A stretch of 64,000 nt of DNA from Patescibacteria group bacterium (GTDB lineage Bacteria > Patescibacteriota > Patescibacteriia > UBA10025 > JBIOWE01), in NCBI GenBank assembly GCA_044868145.1, contig JBIOWE010000006.1, positions 78,558-142,557 on the forward strand. The letters are read 5' to 3'. Made by a program: the position numbers and the translations under genes. Positions 6,641 to 59,911 of the stretch are shown here, one piece after another. Position 1 is the stretch's first letter. Each line of letters starts with the position of its first letter. The notes under the pieces were generated by a model. It was not told where the DNA came from and did not search any database. It saw nothing but the letters and a program-made list of their open reading frames with translations.

Positions 6641-7072
6641 ATGCTGCAGGTGGCTGAAAAGAACGTTATTGACTTTAAGAAACTCGTGAGTGAGCCCTTG
6701 GGTAATGGATACCCACGTTTCTCCGTCAACGGTGTAGCCTATGCGTCTGAAGGAGAGAAAATGATTGCGCTTATGCTGCACGGGAATAACATTAAGTTTC
6801 GTCCAAACCCGTCGTTTAAGTTATCAGACGGTCACACATATATTCCAGACTTTGTTTTAAAATTTCCTTTCACGTGGCTGGGCCAAGACGATGATCGTTA
6901 TAAGACGTTCCGCGTTCTCGAAGCAAAAAACGGAATCATCCACCCTACAGATCTCATAAAAGCAAAACTTCTTGAGGAGGAATGGGGGTTGCCTGTCAAG
7001 TTGCTGCTGTATCGTGAGATTAAAAACCATCACAAACAAGGAGCTTTGCCTCTTGAGCTCATTTTCGACTGA
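6641..7072 (+). CDS. VRR-NUC / PD-(D/E)xK-fold nuclease domain protein
   Basis: 143 aa; motif ...YIPDFVL...(21 aa)...VLEAKNG = D ... ExK catalytic signature; RBS AAAGGAGGGATCA upstream. Confidence 0.5.
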   Translation: MLQVAEKNVIDFKKLVSEPLGNGYPRFSVNGVAYASEGEKMIALMLHGNNIKFRPNPSFKLSDGHTYIPDFVLKFPFTWLGQDDDRYKTFRVLEAKNGIIHPTDLIKAKLLEEEWGLPVKLLLYREIKNHHKQGALPLELIFD

Positions 7073-12070: not shown

Positions 12071-16536
<4,466 letters not shown>

Positions 16537-16738
16537 AAAGCTGGGAGGAAGAACCTACGGTTCCCGGGGCCCCGTTGGTCACCCAAAGGTGACATCACCA
16601 GGCCCGTCTCGTCCCGCGTCAAGCAAAGCAGTTTGCTTCACTTCTTGGCTCGACCCCTCCCACGCCTCCCTTTCCCTTATTTGTGTCCCTCGTCGTAGGT
16701 AACCCGAGACTTACAACTCGGGACGGATTCCTTTTCAT

Positions 16739-16767
16739 TTGACAACCATTCTTGTCCATTCTACAAT
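16739..16767 (+). promoter_or_regulatory. consensus sigma70 promoter TTGACA-17-TACAAT for secE-nusG-rplK
   Basis: -35 at 16739-16744, -10 at 16762-16767; preceded by the conserved CT-rich upstream motif (see findings). Confidence 0.6.
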
Positions 16768-16811
16768 GGATTTAGTCCCCGCAGAGGGGATTTTAAAGAC
16801 CAGAAAATTCC

Positions 16812-17998: not shown

Positions 17999-18964
17999 AT
18001 GCTTAGTTTGCTTATCCCGTTTGGGATTCTCATTATTATTATCTTTGCCATCGTGGCAATGATAGAAGGTAAAACAACAATGAAAAAAGGACGGGTGATT
18101 CGCAGTCTGTATTTCTATTTGACGTCGCTCATTACGCTCGCTATCGTGGTGGGCTCGTTGATTTATCTTATTAACCTTGGCTTGAAGAGCTACGCGTTTA
18201 AGGATGCCGATGCGGGGCTTGATTATGCGGGCGCGCCGCCGACATTATTCTTGGACGCCACAACAACTCCGGAGGCAGCGAAGCCGGTTGGACCGATAGA
18301 TGCAAAACTTTCGTGCGAAAAGGATTGTACGCTTACGGAAACGCAAAAAACGGGTATCGAGAGTTGGAAAACTAACTATCAGCAATGGCAAAGGACCGCA
18401 GCCGATCCCAGCGCAAGGCGGACGCGAGATGCGGTTGCCGCGCTTTCGTTTTTTCTCGTGGCGCTTCCATTTTTCATTATTCATTTTCGCGTAGTGCAAA
18501 AGGATGCAAAACAGCAAGACGAGTCTGAACCAGGCGCGATGCGGCCAATGTATTTTTACTTCGTGGCGCTGGCATCGCTCGTGATGATCGTTGTCGCCGG
18601 CGGTTTTCTCATTAACGTCGGTTTGAAAACATGGGTGTTCCCGAAAGCCGGCCAAGTAGACCAACAGGTGGTACGGCCGTATATTGCTGAATCTGATGCG
18701 AATAAAACCGTTATGGCAAGCCTGGTTGATTGTGCGGATAAGTGCGGTATTGACGCCGAAACAAAAGCGCTCGCGCAGAAGTGGCAAACTGATTACGATT
18801 CGTGGCAGGCACGGGTTAATAAACCGACGAACACGAACCAGCGTCAGGCCGCGACCTCCATTCCGTATGTGTTCGTCGGCATACCGCTGTTTTGGTACCA
18901 CTGGACCGTAGCGCGTCGCGAATCAAAAGAACGCAAGCAATCTCCGCCGACGATGGCTACATAA
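17999..18964 (+). CDS. hypothetical membrane protein with internal tandem duplication (2 x [2 TM + Cys-pair + W..Q.W motif]) inserted between rplK and rplA
   Basis: Repeat 1 RSLYFYLTSLITLAIVVGSLIYLINLGLKSYAF...CEKDC...WKTNYQQWQ; repeat 2 RPMYFYFVALASLVMIVVAGGFLINVGLKTWVF...CADKCG...WQTDYDSWQ. Confidence 0.6.
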   Translation: MLSLLIPFGILIIIIFAIVAMIEGKTTMKKGRVIRSLYFYLTSLITLAIVVGSLIYLINLGLKSYAFKDADAGLDYAGAPPTLFLDATTTPEAAKPVGPIDAKLSCEKDCTLTETQKTGIESWKTNYQQWQRTAADPSARRTRDAVAALSFFLVALPFFIIHFRVVQKDAKQQDESEPGAMRPMYFYFVALASLVMIVVAGGFLINVGLKTWVFPKAGQVDQQVVRPYIAESDANKTVMASLVDCADKCGIDAETKALAQKWQTDYDSWQARVNKPTNTNQRQAATSIPYVFVGIPLFWYHWTVARRESKERKQSPPTMAT

Positions 18965-20453: not shown

Positions 20454-22055
20454 ATGGCTGACGACAAACGAGACATCTTTGCAATCGTAGGATTACCACC
20501 CGAGGTACTCGCGGTCGCCATGGCGAAGTATTCCCGTTCTGCGAAATCCATCAAGGAAACGATTGATGAGTTGACCGAGGAAAAATCCGCAGAGTTTCAC
20601 GAAAAGTGGGTGTTGGGATACGGCGATGCGTCCGTCGCTGATATGGCAATTGTTGCGCTCGCGCTGGAGAATGTTTCCATTCTCGCGAGCAAAGTGATCG
20701 AAGACAACCGAATAGCCGCGTATCAAGAAAAATCCACGCGCTACCAGTCATTCGCGCTTGAAGATAAAGAATTATCAGCTCACTTGCTTGAGCGCAAAGA
20801 AACCGGAGAAGCATTCGCTCGAAAAAGGTACTTCAAGCCCCGGGCAATCATGGCGTCCGGCCAAGCGGCTTTGTTCACGCAAACGGCCGACTTTTTGTTT
20901 GAGCAATACACGGAGATAACAAAGAAGATGATGGAGTATTATTCGCGGAAGTACCCCAAGCCTGCGGACATGACGGATAAGGCCTACGCCGCAAAAGTGC
21001 GGGCACGCTCGCTCGACGTGGCCAGATATTTGTTGCCGGCGGCGACGTTGACGAATTTCGGCATGATCATCAATGCGCGCTCGCTCCGTCATGCGATTTC
21101 CAAAATGATGGGACATCAGCTGGAAGAATTACACGAGATCGGGGCGGAAATGCGGGAAGCCGCCATCAACCCGGCATACAATCCGCAGTCGAAAAAGATC
21201 GAGCAATTACTTGCCCAACTGCGTGCGCTCGGAGGAAAAACGCAGGAGTTAGCCGACCAAGTTCAACAATCCATTTCCCTCCAAGTGAAAGGAGCGCCGA
21301 CGCTTATCAAACATACGGACCCCAAAGAGTATTTAACAAAAACAAGCACGAAACTTGCGGCGATCGCCTCGGAATTACTGAAAGACGTGGTTCCGGAAGC
21401 GGGGGAGCGCGCGTCCTATCTGGGGGTGGATGAAACGTACGAAGACGAGCTGATCATCACCCTTCTTTACGGCGTATCTCATTGCGCGTATCGTCAGATT
21501 GCCGACGTCGTGAGGCGATTGCAAGAAGCGAAGAAAAAAGAAATTATTAAAATCGCAACAGCGCATCGCAGCCAGTGGGATTGGCCGACGCGCCACTTTG
21601 AAACCGGTCGTCAATTCACCTTTGACACGCTTATGGACTATGGCGCGTTTCGGGACCTCCAGCGCCATCGGCTCACGACGCAGATCAACCAAGAGCTGGG
21701 AGTTGAGCATGGCTATGAATTGCCGCTTGGCCTTGGCATTGACGAAGCGGGACTCACTGCACAAATGTCGCAAGCGCTTGAACGCGTGAAAGAAGTATAC
21801 CTCGAGCTGAAATACTCATTCCCGAACGAAGCGCAATACATTATCCCGCTCGGGTTTCGGAAGCGTACGCTTTTTAAAATGAATCTTCGCGAGCTCACGC
21901 ATATCGTGGAACTGCGGACAAAAGCGGGAGGTCACCTATCGTACCGCGACCTGTGCTATGAAATGTATGCAAAAGTATCCAAGCGGCACCCACTGCTCAC
22001 CATGCACATACGCGCCGTGAAGCCGGATTTCCCTAAGGAATTTTTTGAACGCTAG
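20454..22055 (+). CDS. thyX: FAD-dependent thymidylate synthase ThyX-like, fused two-domain (533 aa)
   Basis: Degenerate ThyX motifs in each half (YSRS...STRYQS in the N-half; QRHRLTTQ in the C-half); immediately followed by tmk. Confidence 0.6.
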   Translation: MADDKRDIFAIVGLPPEVLAVAMAKYSRSAKSIKETIDELTEEKSAEFHEKWVLGYGDASVADMAIVALALENVSILASKVIEDNRIAAYQEKSTRYQSFALEDKELSAHLLERKETGEAFARKRYFKPRAIMASGQAALFTQTADFLFEQYTEITKKMMEYYSRKYPKPADMTDKAYAAKVRARSLDVARYLLPAATLTNFGMIINARSLRHAISKMMGHQLEELHEIGAEMREAAINPAYNPQSKKIEQLLAQLRALGGKTQELADQVQQSISLQVKGAPTLIKHTDPKEYLTKTSTKLAAIASELLKDVVPEAGERASYLGVDETYEDELIITLLYGVSHCAYRQIADVVRRLQEAKKKEIIKIATAHRSQWDWPTRHFETGRQFTFDTLMDYGAFRDLQRHRLTTQINQELGVEHGYELPLGLGIDEAGLTAQMSQALERVKEVYLELKYSFPNEAQYIIPLGFRKRTLFKMNLRELTHIVELRTKAGGHLSYRDLCYEMYAKVSKRHPLLTMHIRAVKPDFPKEFFER

Positions 22056-22892: not shown

Positions 22893-23747
22893 ATGAAGCC
22901 GAAGCAAAGATGGAAACGTACTGCAGATAAAAGCTTGGATGTCTATTTGAAAGAAATAGGCAAAACCCCCCTCATTAACCATGAGCAAGAGAAAGAGCTT
23001 GCAAGACGTATTAAAGCAGGTGATGTGCAGGCGATCGAGGAATTGACAAAAGCAAATTTGCGATTCGTTGTTTCTGTCGCAAAACAATACCAAAATCAAG
23101 GCATTCCTCTTCCCGACCTGATCAATGAAGGGAACACAGGTCTTATTACGGCCGTGAAACGATTTGACGAAACCAGAGGCTTCAAATTTATCTCATACGC
23201 TGTTTGGTGGATTCGTCAGGCGATTCTTGCAGCATTAGCCGAACAGTCGCGTATTGTGAATATTCCGTTGAACAGAGTGGGAACAATGATGAAAATCGGT
23301 AGAATAGCGGGCGAATTAGAGCAGTCGCTCGGGCGTCCACCTTCACCTGGAGAAATCGCCAGCGAGCTTAATCTCGGGCACCTGGAGGTGGTTGATACGA
23401 TGAAGATCAAGAATTCTCATCTATCGATTGACGCGCCAATGCCTTTTGCTGAAGACAAGAACCTCATAGAAAACCTTGAGGATAAGCAGCAACCTTCGCC
23501 TGAAGACCTATTGTTAGAACAGTCTTTACGTAAGGAAATTTCCGCAGCTCTTGATTCGTTGACTCCACGTGAAGCAGAAGTCCTGTTATTGTACTTTGGA
23601 TTGAATGGCGAAAGAGCGCAAACTCTTGAAGAAATTGGCCGTGGGTATAATCTGACCCGCGAGCGGGTAAGACAAATCAAGGAAATAGCTATTCGACGGC
23701 TTCGTAAAACAAGTCGCGTCAATGCCCTTAGGGCTTATCTTAAATAG
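22893..23747 (+). CDS. RNA polymerase sigma-70 family factor (regions 1.2-4, no region 1.1)
   Basis: 284 aa from ATG 22893; region 2 NLRFVVSVAKQY, DLINEGNTGLITAVKRFD, region 4 TLEEIGRGYNLTRERVRQIKEIAIRRLR. Confidence 0.9.
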   Translation: MKPKQRWKRTADKSLDVYLKEIGKTPLINHEQEKELARRIKAGDVQAIEELTKANLRFVVSVAKQYQNQGIPLPDLINEGNTGLITAVKRFDETRGFKFISYAVWWIRQAILAALAEQSRIVNIPLNRVGTMMKIGRIAGELEQSLGRPPSPGEIASELNLGHLEVVDTMKIKNSHLSIDAPMPFAEDKNLIENLEDKQQPSPEDLLLEQSLRKEISAALDSLTPREAEVLLLYFGLNGERAQTLEEIGRGYNLTRERVRQIKEIAIRRLRKTSRVNALRAYLK

Positions 23748-23781
23748 GCATTCGTGTTACGGCACGGATGCCTTTTTTTAA
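23746..23781 (+). terminator. rho-independent terminator after sigma gene
   Basis: GGCATTCGTG-ttacgg-CACGGATGCC followed by TTTTTTT. Confidence 0.6.
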
Positions 23782-23876
23782 TCCTCGGAGAGCAAACCTA
23801 CGGTTTTCTCTTCCGATGCCTCTCTTTCCCTTTATTGTCTTCGTCAATTTCAGGAACCCGCCTGTCGGCACCCGAA

Positions 23877-23906
23877 ATTGACTCAGTGTTTTAAGAATAT
23901 GCTACA
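23877..23906 (+). promoter_or_regulatory. promoter TTGACT-18-TACAAT for gatB (ATG only 8 nt after -10, implying a leaderless mRNA)
   Basis: Read from sequence. Confidence 0.45.
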
Positions 23907-23914
23907 ATGTATGT

Positions 23915-25417
23915 ATGAAATACGAAGCGGTTATAGGTCTTGAGACGCATGTACAACTTCGGACGCGATCGAAGATGTTTTGTTCGTGCGACAACACCGG
24001 TGAGACGCAACCGCCGAACACAACCATTTGCCCGATTTGCATGGGCCATCCTGGTACGTTGCCCGTGGCGAACAAGCAGGCAGTTGAATGGGCTATGACC
24101 GCTGCGCTTGCGCTTAGCTGCACGGTAAAGGAACATTCCCGATTTGACCGGAAAAGTTATTTCTACCCGGATTTGCCTAAAGGCTATCAAATTTCCCAGT
24201 ACGACCAGCCAATCGGACGCGACGGTTTTTTGATTGTGGAAACGCCGTCCGGCAGTCGCCGTATTGGCATTGAACGACTGCATGTTGAAGAAGATACAGG
24301 CAAGCTGCTCCATGCGGCTGACGGTTCAAAGTCTTTTGTCGACTTCAACCGCGCAGGCACCCCTCTTCTTGAGATTGTCACAAAACCGGAAATTCGTTCA
24401 CCCGAAGAAGCAAAGATATTTTTACAGGAATTGCGTACGATCATGCGGTACCTAGGTATTTCGGACGCGGATATGGAAAAAGGGCATTTACGCTGCGACG
24501 CAAACATATCGTTGCGGCCGCGCGACGATAATCAGCTGTATCCGAAAACGGAAATCAAGAATATGAACTCGTTTCGAGCGGTTGAAAAAGCGCTGCAGTA
24601 TGAAATAAAACGGCAAACCAAGCTCTGGCAGGCGAACACGCCGCCAAGTACACTTTCCACCCGTGGTTGGGATGAAAAGCGCGAGCAAACTGTGGCCCAG
24701 CGTGAAAAAGAAGAACAGCACGATTACCGCTATTTCCCTGAGCCGGATTTGCCGCTCTTGTATTTCGACAAGGCATTCGTTGCTCACACGAAACAATCCA
24801 TCCGTGAGTTGCCGTTTGAAAAGCGCAACCGTTTTGAGGAAGAATTTGAGCTGTCAAAGTCCGATGCGCACATGATCAGCCAAGACAAGGAAACCGCAGA
24901 TTATTTTGAAAACGTCATTTCAGAGCTGCGGGAATGGCTCGGCACGGCCGAAGGTATGGAAGGGTCGAAGGAAGAACTGTGGGAACAAAACAAGAAAAAG
25001 TTGATCAAGCAAGTCGTGAATTGGCTTATCAGCCGGCTGTTCAATTTGTTGAACGAATCGCGGACCACGATTGATCATGTAAAAGTCACACCGGAAAATT
25101 TTGCCGAGCTCATGACCATGATTTTTCAACACCGCGTGAACGGCACAACCGCATTGGCAATCTTAAAAAAAATGTTTGCGACCGGTGAGGATCCCTCGAC
25201 GATCATGGAAGAAGGGGGGCTTGAACAAATCGGGACAAGTCAGGAATTGGACGGTATCGTTGCAGCCGTGCTTGACAACCACCCGGATATTGTGCGAATG
25301 TACCAACAGGGAAAAACGACAACTTTACAATTTCTCATTGGACAGGTTATGAAAAAGACAAAAGGTCGAGCAGACCCGGAAGTAGTACAAGATTTATTGC
25401 TAACACACTTACAATAA
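23915..25417 (+). CDS. gatB: Asp-tRNA(Asn)/Glu-tRNA(Gln) amidotransferase subunit B
   Basis: 500 aa; MKYEAVIGLETHVQL..SKMFCSC; conserved GatB throughout. Confidence 0.95.
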   Translation: MKYEAVIGLETHVQLRTRSKMFCSCDNTGETQPPNTTICPICMGHPGTLPVANKQAVEWAMTAALALSCTVKEHSRFDRKSYFYPDLPKGYQISQYDQPIGRDGFLIVETPSGSRRIGIERLHVEEDTGKLLHAADGSKSFVDFNRAGTPLLEIVTKPEIRSPEEAKIFLQELRTIMRYLGISDADMEKGHLRCDANISLRPRDDNQLYPKTEIKNMNSFRAVEKALQYEIKRQTKLWQANTPPSTLSTRGWDEKREQTVAQREKEEQHDYRYFPEPDLPLLYFDKAFVAHTKQSIRELPFEKRNRFEEEFELSKSDAHMISQDKETADYFENVISELREWLGTAEGMEGSKEELWEQNKKKLIKQVVNWLISRLFNLLNESRTTIDHVKVTPENFAELMTMIFQHRVNGTTALAILKKMFATGEDPSTIMEEGGLEQIGTSQELDGIVAAVLDNHPDIVRMYQQGKTTTLQFLIGQVMKKTKGRADPEVVQDLLLTHLQ

Positions 25418-32926: not shown

Positions 32927-32942
32927 TTTTATCAAGGAGGCC

Positions 32943-33651: not shown

Positions 33652-33705
33652 GCAAACACCCAGTACATGCTTTCTAGCGTGCGATGGGTTGCTTGATTTT
33701 GACAA

Positions 33706-33870
33706 TTATTTAAGAAAGATATACTGTATGCTTGCCAGGATTACTGACCCTAGTCGGCCCTGGCTTGGAGAGGGGCGCGTATACTCCATATTTATACGCC
33801 GTTTGACGGGACCTAGGGGTCCGCGAGAATAGCCGGATGGCCATTAAGGCATCCGGCGTTTATTTACAGT
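33706..33870 (+). ncRNA. candidate small structured RNA (unclassified)
   Basis: TTGACA-15-TATACT promoter at 33706-33732, followed by about 140 nt with at least four stable hairpins (GCCAGG/CCTGGC, GCGTATA/TATACGC, GGACC/GGTCC, CCGGATG/CATCCGG) and a U-rich tail; no ORF. Confidence 0.3.
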
Positions 33871-33884
33871 AAACAACCAGTAGG

Positions 33885-33911
33885 TCGGGGCCTGGCCCCG
33901 ACCTACGATAT
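33885..33911. terminator. perfect 13-bp-arm palindrome (GTAGGTCGGGGCC t GGCCCCGACCTAC), likely bidirectional terminator after thrS
   Basis: Read from sequence, 5 nt from the thrS stop. Confidence 0.55.
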
Positions 33912-33915
33912 TTTA

Positions 33916-46858: not shown

Positions 46859-46888
46859 ACCGTGATTAAATAAAAAACAAACTTTATC

Positions 46889-46906
46889 AAGGAGGAAAAA
46901 ATGTAG
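46889..46906 (+). promoter_or_regulatory. start-stop minimal ORF (AAGGAGG-6nt-ATG-TAG) in the SPFH leader
   Basis: caAGGAGGaaaaaATGTAGtttg read directly from sequence. Confidence 0.4.
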
Positions 46907-50345: not shown

Positions 50346-50452
50346 GAGAACGCTCGAAAGAGCGATTATCTCACATACTTTCTGACGACCCCATCCTGCC
50401 CAAATCGGCACGCGGGAAGAACGACGAAAGTAGCGGCTAAAAAAGGATTCCT

Positions 50453-59446: not shown

Positions 59447-59710
59447 CTACTGCCTTACTAATGCTAAACTATTTCTTATATGTTTCTTTACGAAATTGCG
59501 ACCCCATCCTGTTTTAAAATATTTTTCTCGTTCGCGCGCATCGGATTCTGCTAGGAACGCTTCATAATAGAGAAGTTTGAACGGAGTCCGCAGTTTTGTC
59601 GAAAATACTTTACCCGCGCGGTGTTTGTTAAGACGCTTCTTCAAATCATTCGTAAATCCGGTGTATAATTTATTATCTCTGGTACTGTACAGAATGTAAA
59701 CATAGTACAT
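59447..59710 (-). CDS. GIY-YIG nuclease superfamily protein (87 aa)
   Basis: MYYVYILYSTRDNKLYTGFTNDLKKRLNKHRAG...KLLYYEAF...REKYFK..GRNFV matches the GIY-YIG core; the longer 248-aa ORF extension is antisense to neighbouring features. Confidence 0.8.
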   Translation of the reverse strand: MYYVYILYSTRDNKLYTGFTNDLKKRLNKHRAGKVFSTKLRTPFKLLYYEAFLAESDAREREKYFKTGWGRNFVKKHIRNSLALVRQ

Positions 59711-59766: not shown

Positions 59767-59837
59767 GCGGGTGTAGTATAGCGGCAGTACGCTTGCTTCC
59801 CAAGCAAGAAGAGGCGGTTCGACTCCGCTCATCCGCT
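59767..59837 (+). tRNA. tRNA-Gly (anticodon CCC)
   Basis: Acceptor GCGGGTG/CATCCGC (one G-U), anticodon stem CTTGC/GCAAG, loop ttCCCaa, T-arm GGCGG-TTCGACT-CCGCT, discriminator U. Confidence 0.8.
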
Positions 59838-59862
59838 CGGGCGAAGGCAGGCGGGGAACCGG

Positions 59863-59911
59863 CGCAACAACCTTGGGAAGGTTGTGTACTACCACTATAC
59901 GAATCCCGCAA
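59863..59911 (-). pseudogene. inverted partial tRNA-Gly(CCC)-like copy (5' half intact, 3' half degenerate)
   Basis: Reverse complement GCGGGATTCGTATAGTGGTAGTACACAACCTTCCCAAGGTTG has acceptor, D-arm and CCC anticodon arm but no valid T-arm/acceptor 3' strand. Confidence 0.4.

Follow-up and report, generated by a model that had tools for sequence, protein, structure and literature searches.

REP and BIME elements, the extragenic palindromes of enterobacteria, occur in hundreds of copies and serve in 3′-end protection and in the attenuation of read-through. C-rich small RNAs (with UCCC or CCUCC; for example staphylococcal RsaE and RNAIII-type motifs) pair with Shine-Dalgarno sites. UP elements are A/T-rich, lie at −40 to −60 and touch the −35 hexamer.

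Here we describe a sequence that occurs twice in 64 kb of contiguous DNA (the window, meaning the whole stretch that was analysed) from a member of the Patescibacteria (CPR). The NusG of this organism is at most 89% identical to that of any species-representative genome, and its best matches all come from Patescibacteria MAGs. The sequence belongs to a broad class, that of small structured repeats outside genes, and is an undescribed member of it. Like REP/BIME elements, it is an imperfect palindrome of ~20–40 nt that forms a stable hairpin (32 nt in copy 2, with the same 12 pairs in copy 1); it occupies non-coding gaps where transcription units end, always oriented the same way relative to transcription, its hairpin is maintained by compensating changes, and the roles proposed for it match theirs. 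It differs from them in the number of copies seen (two in the window and none in the 7.4 kb beyond it, versus hundreds) and in having a conserved single-stranded C/U-rich tail as part of the unit. It has no sequence relationship to them, no RAYT (IS200/IS605-like) transposase is found among the annotated genes of the window, and there is no flanking GTAG – the only instance of that tetranucleotide is on the minus strand of the loop.

Other described systems share fewer traits with the element. C-rich small RNAs likewise have hairpins on either side of an unpaired C/U-rich tract that is complementary to ribosome-binding sites of the GGAGG type. The present element, known here from sequence alone, is without promoter, canonical terminator or homology to them, and its tract is duplicated and partly sequestered by an internal Shine-Dalgarno-like strand. 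UP elements resemble it in lying upstream of a near-consensus promoter, whereas its tract is C/T-rich and sits at a variable position, 39–54 nt upstream of the −35 hexamer. MITEs and other small dispersed repeats (Correia/NEMIS, RUP, BOX, ERIC) are likewise small, intergenic and non-coding and vary in length between copies, but the borders of this element carry no terminal inverted repeats or target-site duplication. The 3′ end of 16S rRNA (the helix 45 3′ strand AACCUGCGGUU, then the GAUCACCUCCUUUC anti-Shine-Dalgarno tail) has the same order of hairpin and CCUCC-UUUC-like tail, and an 11-mer of the element matches it at 10 of 11 positions (AACCTACGGTT against AACCTGCGGTT). We rejected a fragment or mimic of the 16S 3′ end: 3% to 55% of shuffles reach the score, depending on the reference, other parts of the window score higher, and neither region has an SSU rRNA match in Rfam at E values up to 10.

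Two spacers of the window share a collinear sequence

The two copies lie 7.2 kb apart, in the gyrB-secE spacer (copy 1) and in the spacer between a sigma-70 gene and gatB (copy 2; Table 1). Each takes up the DNA from where one transcription unit stops (gyrB; sigma-70) to the next promoter (secE-nusG-rplK; gatB), and both are oriented like the flanking genes. Copy 1 begins 3 nt past the gyrB stop codon and copy 2 begins 5 nt past the T-run of the sigma-gene terminator. Two coding features of the same run of genes may be recorded here: the DUF5671 membrane-protein gene between rplK and rplA (321 aa, 17999–18964), an arrangement kept in several relatives, and a ThyX of double length (20454–22055; 533 aa, two Thy1 stretches).

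Table 1. Features of the element and of its surroundings (positions are those of the window)
Feature	Position	Strand	Description
Gene order, first part		+	pheS, pheT, gyrB (14470–16536), spacer 1, secE (16812), nusG, rplK, DUF5671, rplA
Gene order, continued		+	GDPD, thyX, tmk, sigma-70 (ends 23747), spacer 2, gatB (23915), carA, carB
Element core			~65–70 nt; P1 (7–9 bp) around P2 (5 bp, UAC loop), then an unpaired ~30-nt C/U-rich tail
gyrB stop codon	16534–16536	+	
P1 5′ strand (outer stem), copy 1	16540–16548	+	GCTGGGAGG; purine-rich, with Shine-Dalgarno-like GGGAGG
Inner hairpin P2, copy 1	16551–16563	+	GAACC-TAC-GGTTC; includes the 11-mer (16552–16562)
Copy-1-specific insert, 92 nt	16564–16655	+	~60% GC; separates P2 from the P1 3′ strand; adds two or three hairpins
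P1 3′ strand, copy 1	16656–16665	+	CCTCCCA-c-GC
C/T-rich tail, copy 1	16664–16697	+	GCCTCCCTTTCCCTTATTTGTGTCCCTCGTCG; CCTCCC of the P1 3′ strand recurs here
Short hairpin, copy 1	16703–16722	+	CCCGAG-N8-CTCGGG; upstream of the −35 hexamer
secE promoter	16739–16767	+	TTGACA-17-TACAAT; 11/12 match; outside the repeat
Intrinsic terminator of the sigma-70 gene	23746–23780	+	Canonical; 12-bp stem and T7; immediately 5′ of copy 2; called by the scan at 23746–23773
Complete bulged hairpin, copy 2	23785–23816	+	P1 5′ TCGGAGAG, P2 AAACC-TAC-GGTTT, P1 3′ CTC-t-TCCGA
C/T-rich tail, copy 2	23818–23848	+	GCCTCTCTTTCCCTTTATTGTCTTCGTCAA; unpaired in the fold
Inverted repeat, copy 2	23843–23882	+	GTCAATTTCAGG-N16-CCCGAAATTGAC; −35 TTGAC inside the right arm
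gatB promoter and start	23878–23917	+	TTGACT-19-TGCTACAAT, 6 nt, ATG (23915); outside the repeat

A first-pass annotation of this DNA had pointed to an 11-mer and a CT-rich tract shared by the two spacers. Both are present. The 11-mer AACCTACGGTT occurs twice on the + strand, in copy 1 and at 23795–23805 within the P2 hairpin of copy 2, and the tract GCCTC[C/T]CTTTCCCTT[A/T][A/T]TTGT occurs at 16664–16684 and 23818–23838. The short hairpin said to follow each copy is also there, although the two hairpins are non-homologous beyond AGG(T)AACCCG and neither is a canonical terminator. The spacing of 95–140 nt between the motifs did not hold: copy 1 has 101 nt between them and copy 2 has 12. Nor is the recurrence of the 11-mer improbable, as had been argued: the window has 1046 same-strand pairs of repeated 11-mers, 15 of them between different intergenic regions, and the argument is invalid because the 11-mer was picked after the fact. 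With one mismatch allowed, at least two matches to it were found in 17 of 100 shuffles. Two other pairs of sites share exact 13-mers – CGACCCCATCCTG at 50386–50398 (in the spacer upstream of rpsB) and 59499–59511 (near tRNA-Thr/Gly), and TTTATCAAGGAGG at two ribosome-binding sites, 32928–32940 and 46883–46895 – so short exact repeats between spacers are common here.

The CT tract has only its two matches in the window even at three mismatches, with none expected. As an alignment (22 of 27 positions identical, score 29) it is only among the top four of 930 intergenic comparisons, and pairs of A-rich, low-complexity spacers equal its local score (29–33). The collinear combination of 11-mer and tract, with a long gap allowed, is the highest-scoring of the 930 comparisons (41.2 versus 35.9 for the runner-up), and its score was reached by none of 300 shuffles. 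A rough extreme-value correction for the 930 comparisons puts p at an estimated ~0.05–0.15, which makes the similarity of the sequences alone borderline. When the 92-nt insert of copy 1 is spliced out, the copies give an ungapped alignment of 70 columns with 47 identities, and the likeness extends past both motifs (CT.GGAG; TCC.A.GCC; C.TCGTC; AGG(T)AACCCG). As a pattern, the element reads [5-bp stem]-TAC-[stem], then GCCTCYCTTTCCC. We regard the homology of the two copies as very probably real.

Both copies are predicted to form the same hairpin

The 11-mer, itself an inverted repeat (AACC-TAC-GGTT), forms the tip of a bulged hairpin of 12 bp. This inner stem, P2, grows to 5 bp in both copies, and its fifth pair is G-C in copy 1 and A-T in copy 2, a compensatory difference. 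A second stem, P1, encloses P2 in both copies (GCTGGGAGG / CCTCCCA.GC versus TCGGAGAG / CTC.TCCGA). All 12 common pairs form in both, with none broken, and the six stem columns that differ make up exactly three compensatory pairs (G-C to C-G, G-C to A-U and G-C to A-U). Random sets of six substitutions kept all pairs in only 0.07% of trials, a covariation argument that is inflated because the structure was drawn with both sequences known. Sliding the partner strand as a control gave 42–67% pairing, versus 100% observed. The structure played no part in finding the pair of copies. Fold z-scores were −3.1 for the copy 1 domain and −4.4 for the 32-nt copy 2 hairpin, which has a predicted energy of −14.3 kcal/mol and was matched in stability by none of 200 shuffles. 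From these modelled folds we conclude that the hairpin is under constraint.

The tail of each copy duplicates the 3′ strand of its own P1: CCTCCC occurs twice in copy 1, and TCTCTTTCC repeats TCTCTTCC in copy 2. The purine strand of P1 could thus pair with either. Within a conserved 15-mer the copies differ only by one C/T exchange, which goes with the G/A exchange in the 5′ strand. The outer stem of copy 1 is complementary across a 92-nt insertion, which argues for constraint on a folded single strand, most simply RNA, and an outer arm 92 nt from its partner is a poor fit to a dimeric site in duplex DNA. All stem pairs are Watson–Crick, so the folds cannot distinguish the + from the − strand.

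The insert makes the copy 1 hairpin a multi-branch domain that is still closed by P1, the 5′ strand of which pairs with 16656–16665 in both the minimum-free-energy and the centroid fold. Its own predicted hairpins are GGGCC..GGTCACC-CAAA-GGTGAC..GGCCC and AAGCAAA-GCAG-TTTGCTT; it is absent from copy 2 and has no second instance in the window. The tails of both copies rank among the + strand sites with the strongest excess of C over G. Positions 16654–16678 are the only intergenic run in the window with at least 23 pyrimidines in 25, and C outnumbers G by 34 to 12 at 16603–16680 (99.96th percentile for C/G, + strand) and by about 26 to 13 at ~23800–23877 (99.7th percentile). The short hairpin downstream of the copy 1 tail is not distinctive (fold z-score −0.1); a T-run begins 9 nt past its stem, and the terminator scan made no call there and called no canonical terminator for gyrB.

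In the Logan assembly of the same organism (SRR30692719), contig L082 ends at 16566 and the next contig, L081, starts at 16638, so that 71 nt within the copy 1 insert are unassembled. Population polymorphism, a repeat and a drop in coverage at a G+C-rich hairpin are all possible causes. Since Logan contigs also break in coding genes (near 6824 and 12833), breakage is no special property of the element, and it gives only a hint of polymorphism.

The promoters lie outside the element

The promoter pattern claimed for both genes, TTGAC(A/T)-17/18-TACAAT, stood for secE, with a spacer of 17, and failed for gatB, which has a spacer of 19 with a TGn extended −10 (TGCTACAAT, 23900–23908); our promoter scan did not call the gatB promoter. 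The gatB ATG lies 6 nt past the −10 hexamer and has no Shine-Dalgarno sequence, so its mRNA is probably leaderless. A relative (locus L002, 17020–17052) has the same layout of terminator, extended −10 (TGTTAATAT), N6 and ATG upstream of gatB without the element. At secE, relatives that lack the element have the promoter at the same position relative to a conserved leader hairpin. The conservation of that distance indicates that the promoter is ancestral and that the element lies upstream of the transcription start.

Measured from the inferred starts, the CT tract spans about −110 to −90 at secE and −97 to −77 at gatB, and the 11-mer lies at about −222 and −120, so that the offsets differ between copies by 13–15 nt for the tract and by ~100 nt for the 11-mer. 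From the end of the tract to the −35 hexamer there are 54 nt at secE and 39 nt at gatB. Neither promoter includes any part of the element. The scan found no sigma-70-like promoter before either copy, where manual inspection showed weak −10-like AT boxes only.

The leader that directly follows the secE promoter is an observation in its own right. It is terminator-like, with a hairpin (TCCCC-GCAGA-GGGGA) followed by TTTTAAAGACC at 16776–16801, ~20 nt before the secE ATG, and it has the same position across loci L001–L077. The layout of promoter, G+C hairpin of 4–7 bp and T4-7 AA[AG]A occurs upstream of secE at 52 of 69 Patescibacteria loci, versus 0.5 expected in shuffles. The stems vary in sequence across relatives with what look like compensating changes, the loops being too variable for MAFFT/RNAalifold to align. 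No Rfam family matched the leader. Judged by its sequence, it may attenuate the secE-nusG operon, perhaps in response to NusG. This leader hairpin across Patescibacteria is a more general and better supported finding than the two-copy element.

The element is confined to this genome among the sequences searched

A pattern search with three mismatches, nhmmer and a covariance model run with its filters off all returned two copies in the window, and a further 7.4 kb of upstream sequence from the same organism held no third (~71 kb covered in total, of a 397,665-nt contig). This bears out one suggestion of the first-pass annotation, a small repeated genomic element. The other translation operons of the window (rpsB-tsf, rplY, pheST, thrS and the tRNA cluster) lack it, the window contains no tandem or TIGR-like arrays, and no transposase gene is present among its annotated genes or near either copy.

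In the nearest relatives with the same gene order, the element is missing and the promoters sit directly against the upstream gene. The proposed check for conservation upstream of orthologous operons thus came out negative in L001, L002 and L004, which keep the gyrB-secE adjacency and the promoters, with gyrB-secE spacers of about 450, 150 and 78 nt, respectively; the L002 sigma-gatB spacer consists of terminator and promoter only. Among eighty Patescibacteria nusG loci (~1.25–1.26 Mb), no homologue was found by blastn, nhmmer or covariance model. The best covariance-model match (L058, E = 0.02) is spurious, lying inside a coding region. All six flanking proteins examined are singletons in 90% clusters of ~15 billion proteins, so there is no close relative in which to test conservation.

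Wider searches gave a similar picture. A metagenome scan with the CT tract yielded 13 matches, which we rejected as unrelated since only the 21-mer matched and several were reverse-complemented ribosome-binding sites; phage and plasmid collections gave no match. Only tRNAs pass the Rfam thresholds in the window, and a permissive Rfam search of the two regions returned at best 10–21 bits against thresholds of 45–81, with no family. No match was seen to operator motifs for LexA, CIRCE, NrdR and others. A small protein gene was likewise rejected: on the + strand, the frame that both copies have in common opens with ACG in copy 1, frames on the minus strand diverge after the insert and have no usable starts, and the small ORFs have no tblastn similarity in relatives and no coding remnant.

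Two further observations concern other parts of the window. In a 264-nt spacer at 33652–33915, a TTGACA...TATACT promoter precedes ~190 nt rich in G+C and in hairpins, with a T-run close to the end; we regard it as a candidate gene for a non-coding RNA, with no Rfam match at the gathering threshold and a permissive match of 15.8 bits that is at chance level. ARAGORN reports abutting tRNA-Gly(CCC) genes on opposite strands, at 59767–59838 (+) and 59839–59910 (−), of which Rfam reports only the + copy. Either the tRNA gene was duplicated in inverted form or the second call is a mirror artefact.

Discussion

We propose, with a probability of roughly 45%, that the element is an extragenic hairpin repeat, specific to this lineage and present in two copies, which the gyrB and sigma-factor transcripts probably carry in their 3′ tails. 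Selection on a folded single strand would mean that it is most likely read as RNA, and since it has no convincing promoter of its own, the likeliest transcript is the 3′ tail of the upstream gene. Behind gyrB, where no other terminator is present, the element would be transcribed directly. For copy 2, transcription would require read-through from the sigma gene, past the strong canonical terminator that precedes this copy. The stable hairpin and its C-rich, G-poor tail may protect the 3′ end of the transcript; alternatively, they may provide back-up termination, of Rho-type or weak intrinsic kind, that insulates the strong downstream promoter. We infer these roles by analogy with described elements.

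As regards intrinsic termination, no U-run directly follows either element hairpin (the tails begin CUCCCUUUC and UGCCUCUCU), and the scan that calls the sigma-gene terminator calls neither of them. As regards Rho, both copies have the composition of a rut site, a stretch of ~70–80 nt of poorly structured RNA rich in C and poor in G; no rho gene was found among the annotated ORFs of the window, and a literature search was without result. The putative status of a repeat family rests on n = 2.

In order of weight, the rivals to a 3′-tail hairpin repeat are a small RNA with an anti-Shine-Dalgarno-like tract, a neutral or mobile repeat, chance, and a regulator site upstream of the promoters. The weightiest, if still unlikely, is a small regulatory RNA that is independent or arises by processing of a 3′ UTR, and whose free C/U tract would bind the Shine-Dalgarno regions of target mRNAs or which would act as a two-fold switch. 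The layout of both copies (a structured 5′ domain, ~26–30 nt of unpaired C/U tract, a 3′ hairpin and U-rich sequence) is that of such an RNA, and so is the match of a Shine-Dalgarno-like strand (GGGAGG or GGAGAG) to the duplicated P1 3′ strand in each tail, together with the C/T difference that tracks the G/A difference; genes of this genome use strong GGAGG-type Shine-Dalgarno sites, and copy 1, at ~60% GC, is far above other spacers. Yet a sigma-70-like promoter precedes neither copy, the 3′ hairpins are non-homologous and not canonical terminators though canonical ones exist nearby, homologues are lacking in relatives and in Rfam, and here too n = 2. A further reading, a first example of a structured RNA module from a Patescibacteria lineage in which the Shine-Dalgarno-like strand can pair with either of two tandem anti-Shine-Dalgarno-like tracts, strikes us as improbable. 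Its two-state fold would expose or hide a CCUCC-type tract, and the module could act on ribosome-binding sites in trans or at the 3′ ends of transcripts; in this genome some genes (gatB) would be leaderless, while others have strong Shine-Dalgarno sites. We also think it unlikely, and place second among the rivals, that the copies are neutral or selfish DNA – the relic of a local duplication, or MITE-like insertions into two permissive spacers – that would do nothing for the host. A decaying neutral repeat would not preserve stem differences that are all compensatory, and the borders show no terminal inverted repeats or target-site duplications, with no transposase gene nearby; what recommends this reading is the restriction to one lineage, with the element missing from relatives that have minimal spacers, and the large internal indel between the copies. 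The Logan breaks on both sides of the 71-nt segment fit polymorphism or a repeat, but such breaks occur in coding genes as well.

That two pyrimidine-rich spacers sharing an 11-mer are alike by chance is quite improbable in our estimation. Repeated 11-mers are common here (1046 pairs, 15 of them intergenic), low-complexity spacer pairs score 29–33, and the estimated corrected p from sequence alone would leave room for it. Against chance, this particular 11-mer is a hairpin lengthened by a fifth pair that covaries, a second stem surrounds it in each copy with a sequence that differs between them, the similarity runs past both motifs, and both copies occupy the same kind of position. Least probable by our reckoning is the other suggestion of the first-pass annotation, a shared regulator site or UP-like element in DNA that co-regulates the secE-nusG-rplK and gatB promoters. 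It draws on the location of both copies upstream of strong promoters of translation-tied genes and on the 11-mer being an inverted repeat (AACC-N3-GGTT). It does not hold up against the variable offsets of tract and 11-mer, far upstream of −40 to −60, against a tract that is C/T-rich and not A/T-rich, against the displacement of the outer arm of the palindrome by 92 nt in copy 1, or against the absence of the element from the orthologous promoters of relatives and from the rpsB-tsf, rplY, pheST, thrS and tRNA promoters of the window.

The practical value of reading the element as an extragenic hairpin repeat is mostly corrective. Both promoters are ordinary, the sequence shared upstream of them is not a regulon signal, and it offers no basis for inferring co-regulation of secE-nusG-rplK with gatB. 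If real and functional, the element would be a candidate non-coding RNA in a phylum for which, to our knowledge, almost no RNA elements have been described, and an example of how the very small, spacer-poor genomes of CPR/Patescibacteria end or insulate their transcription units.
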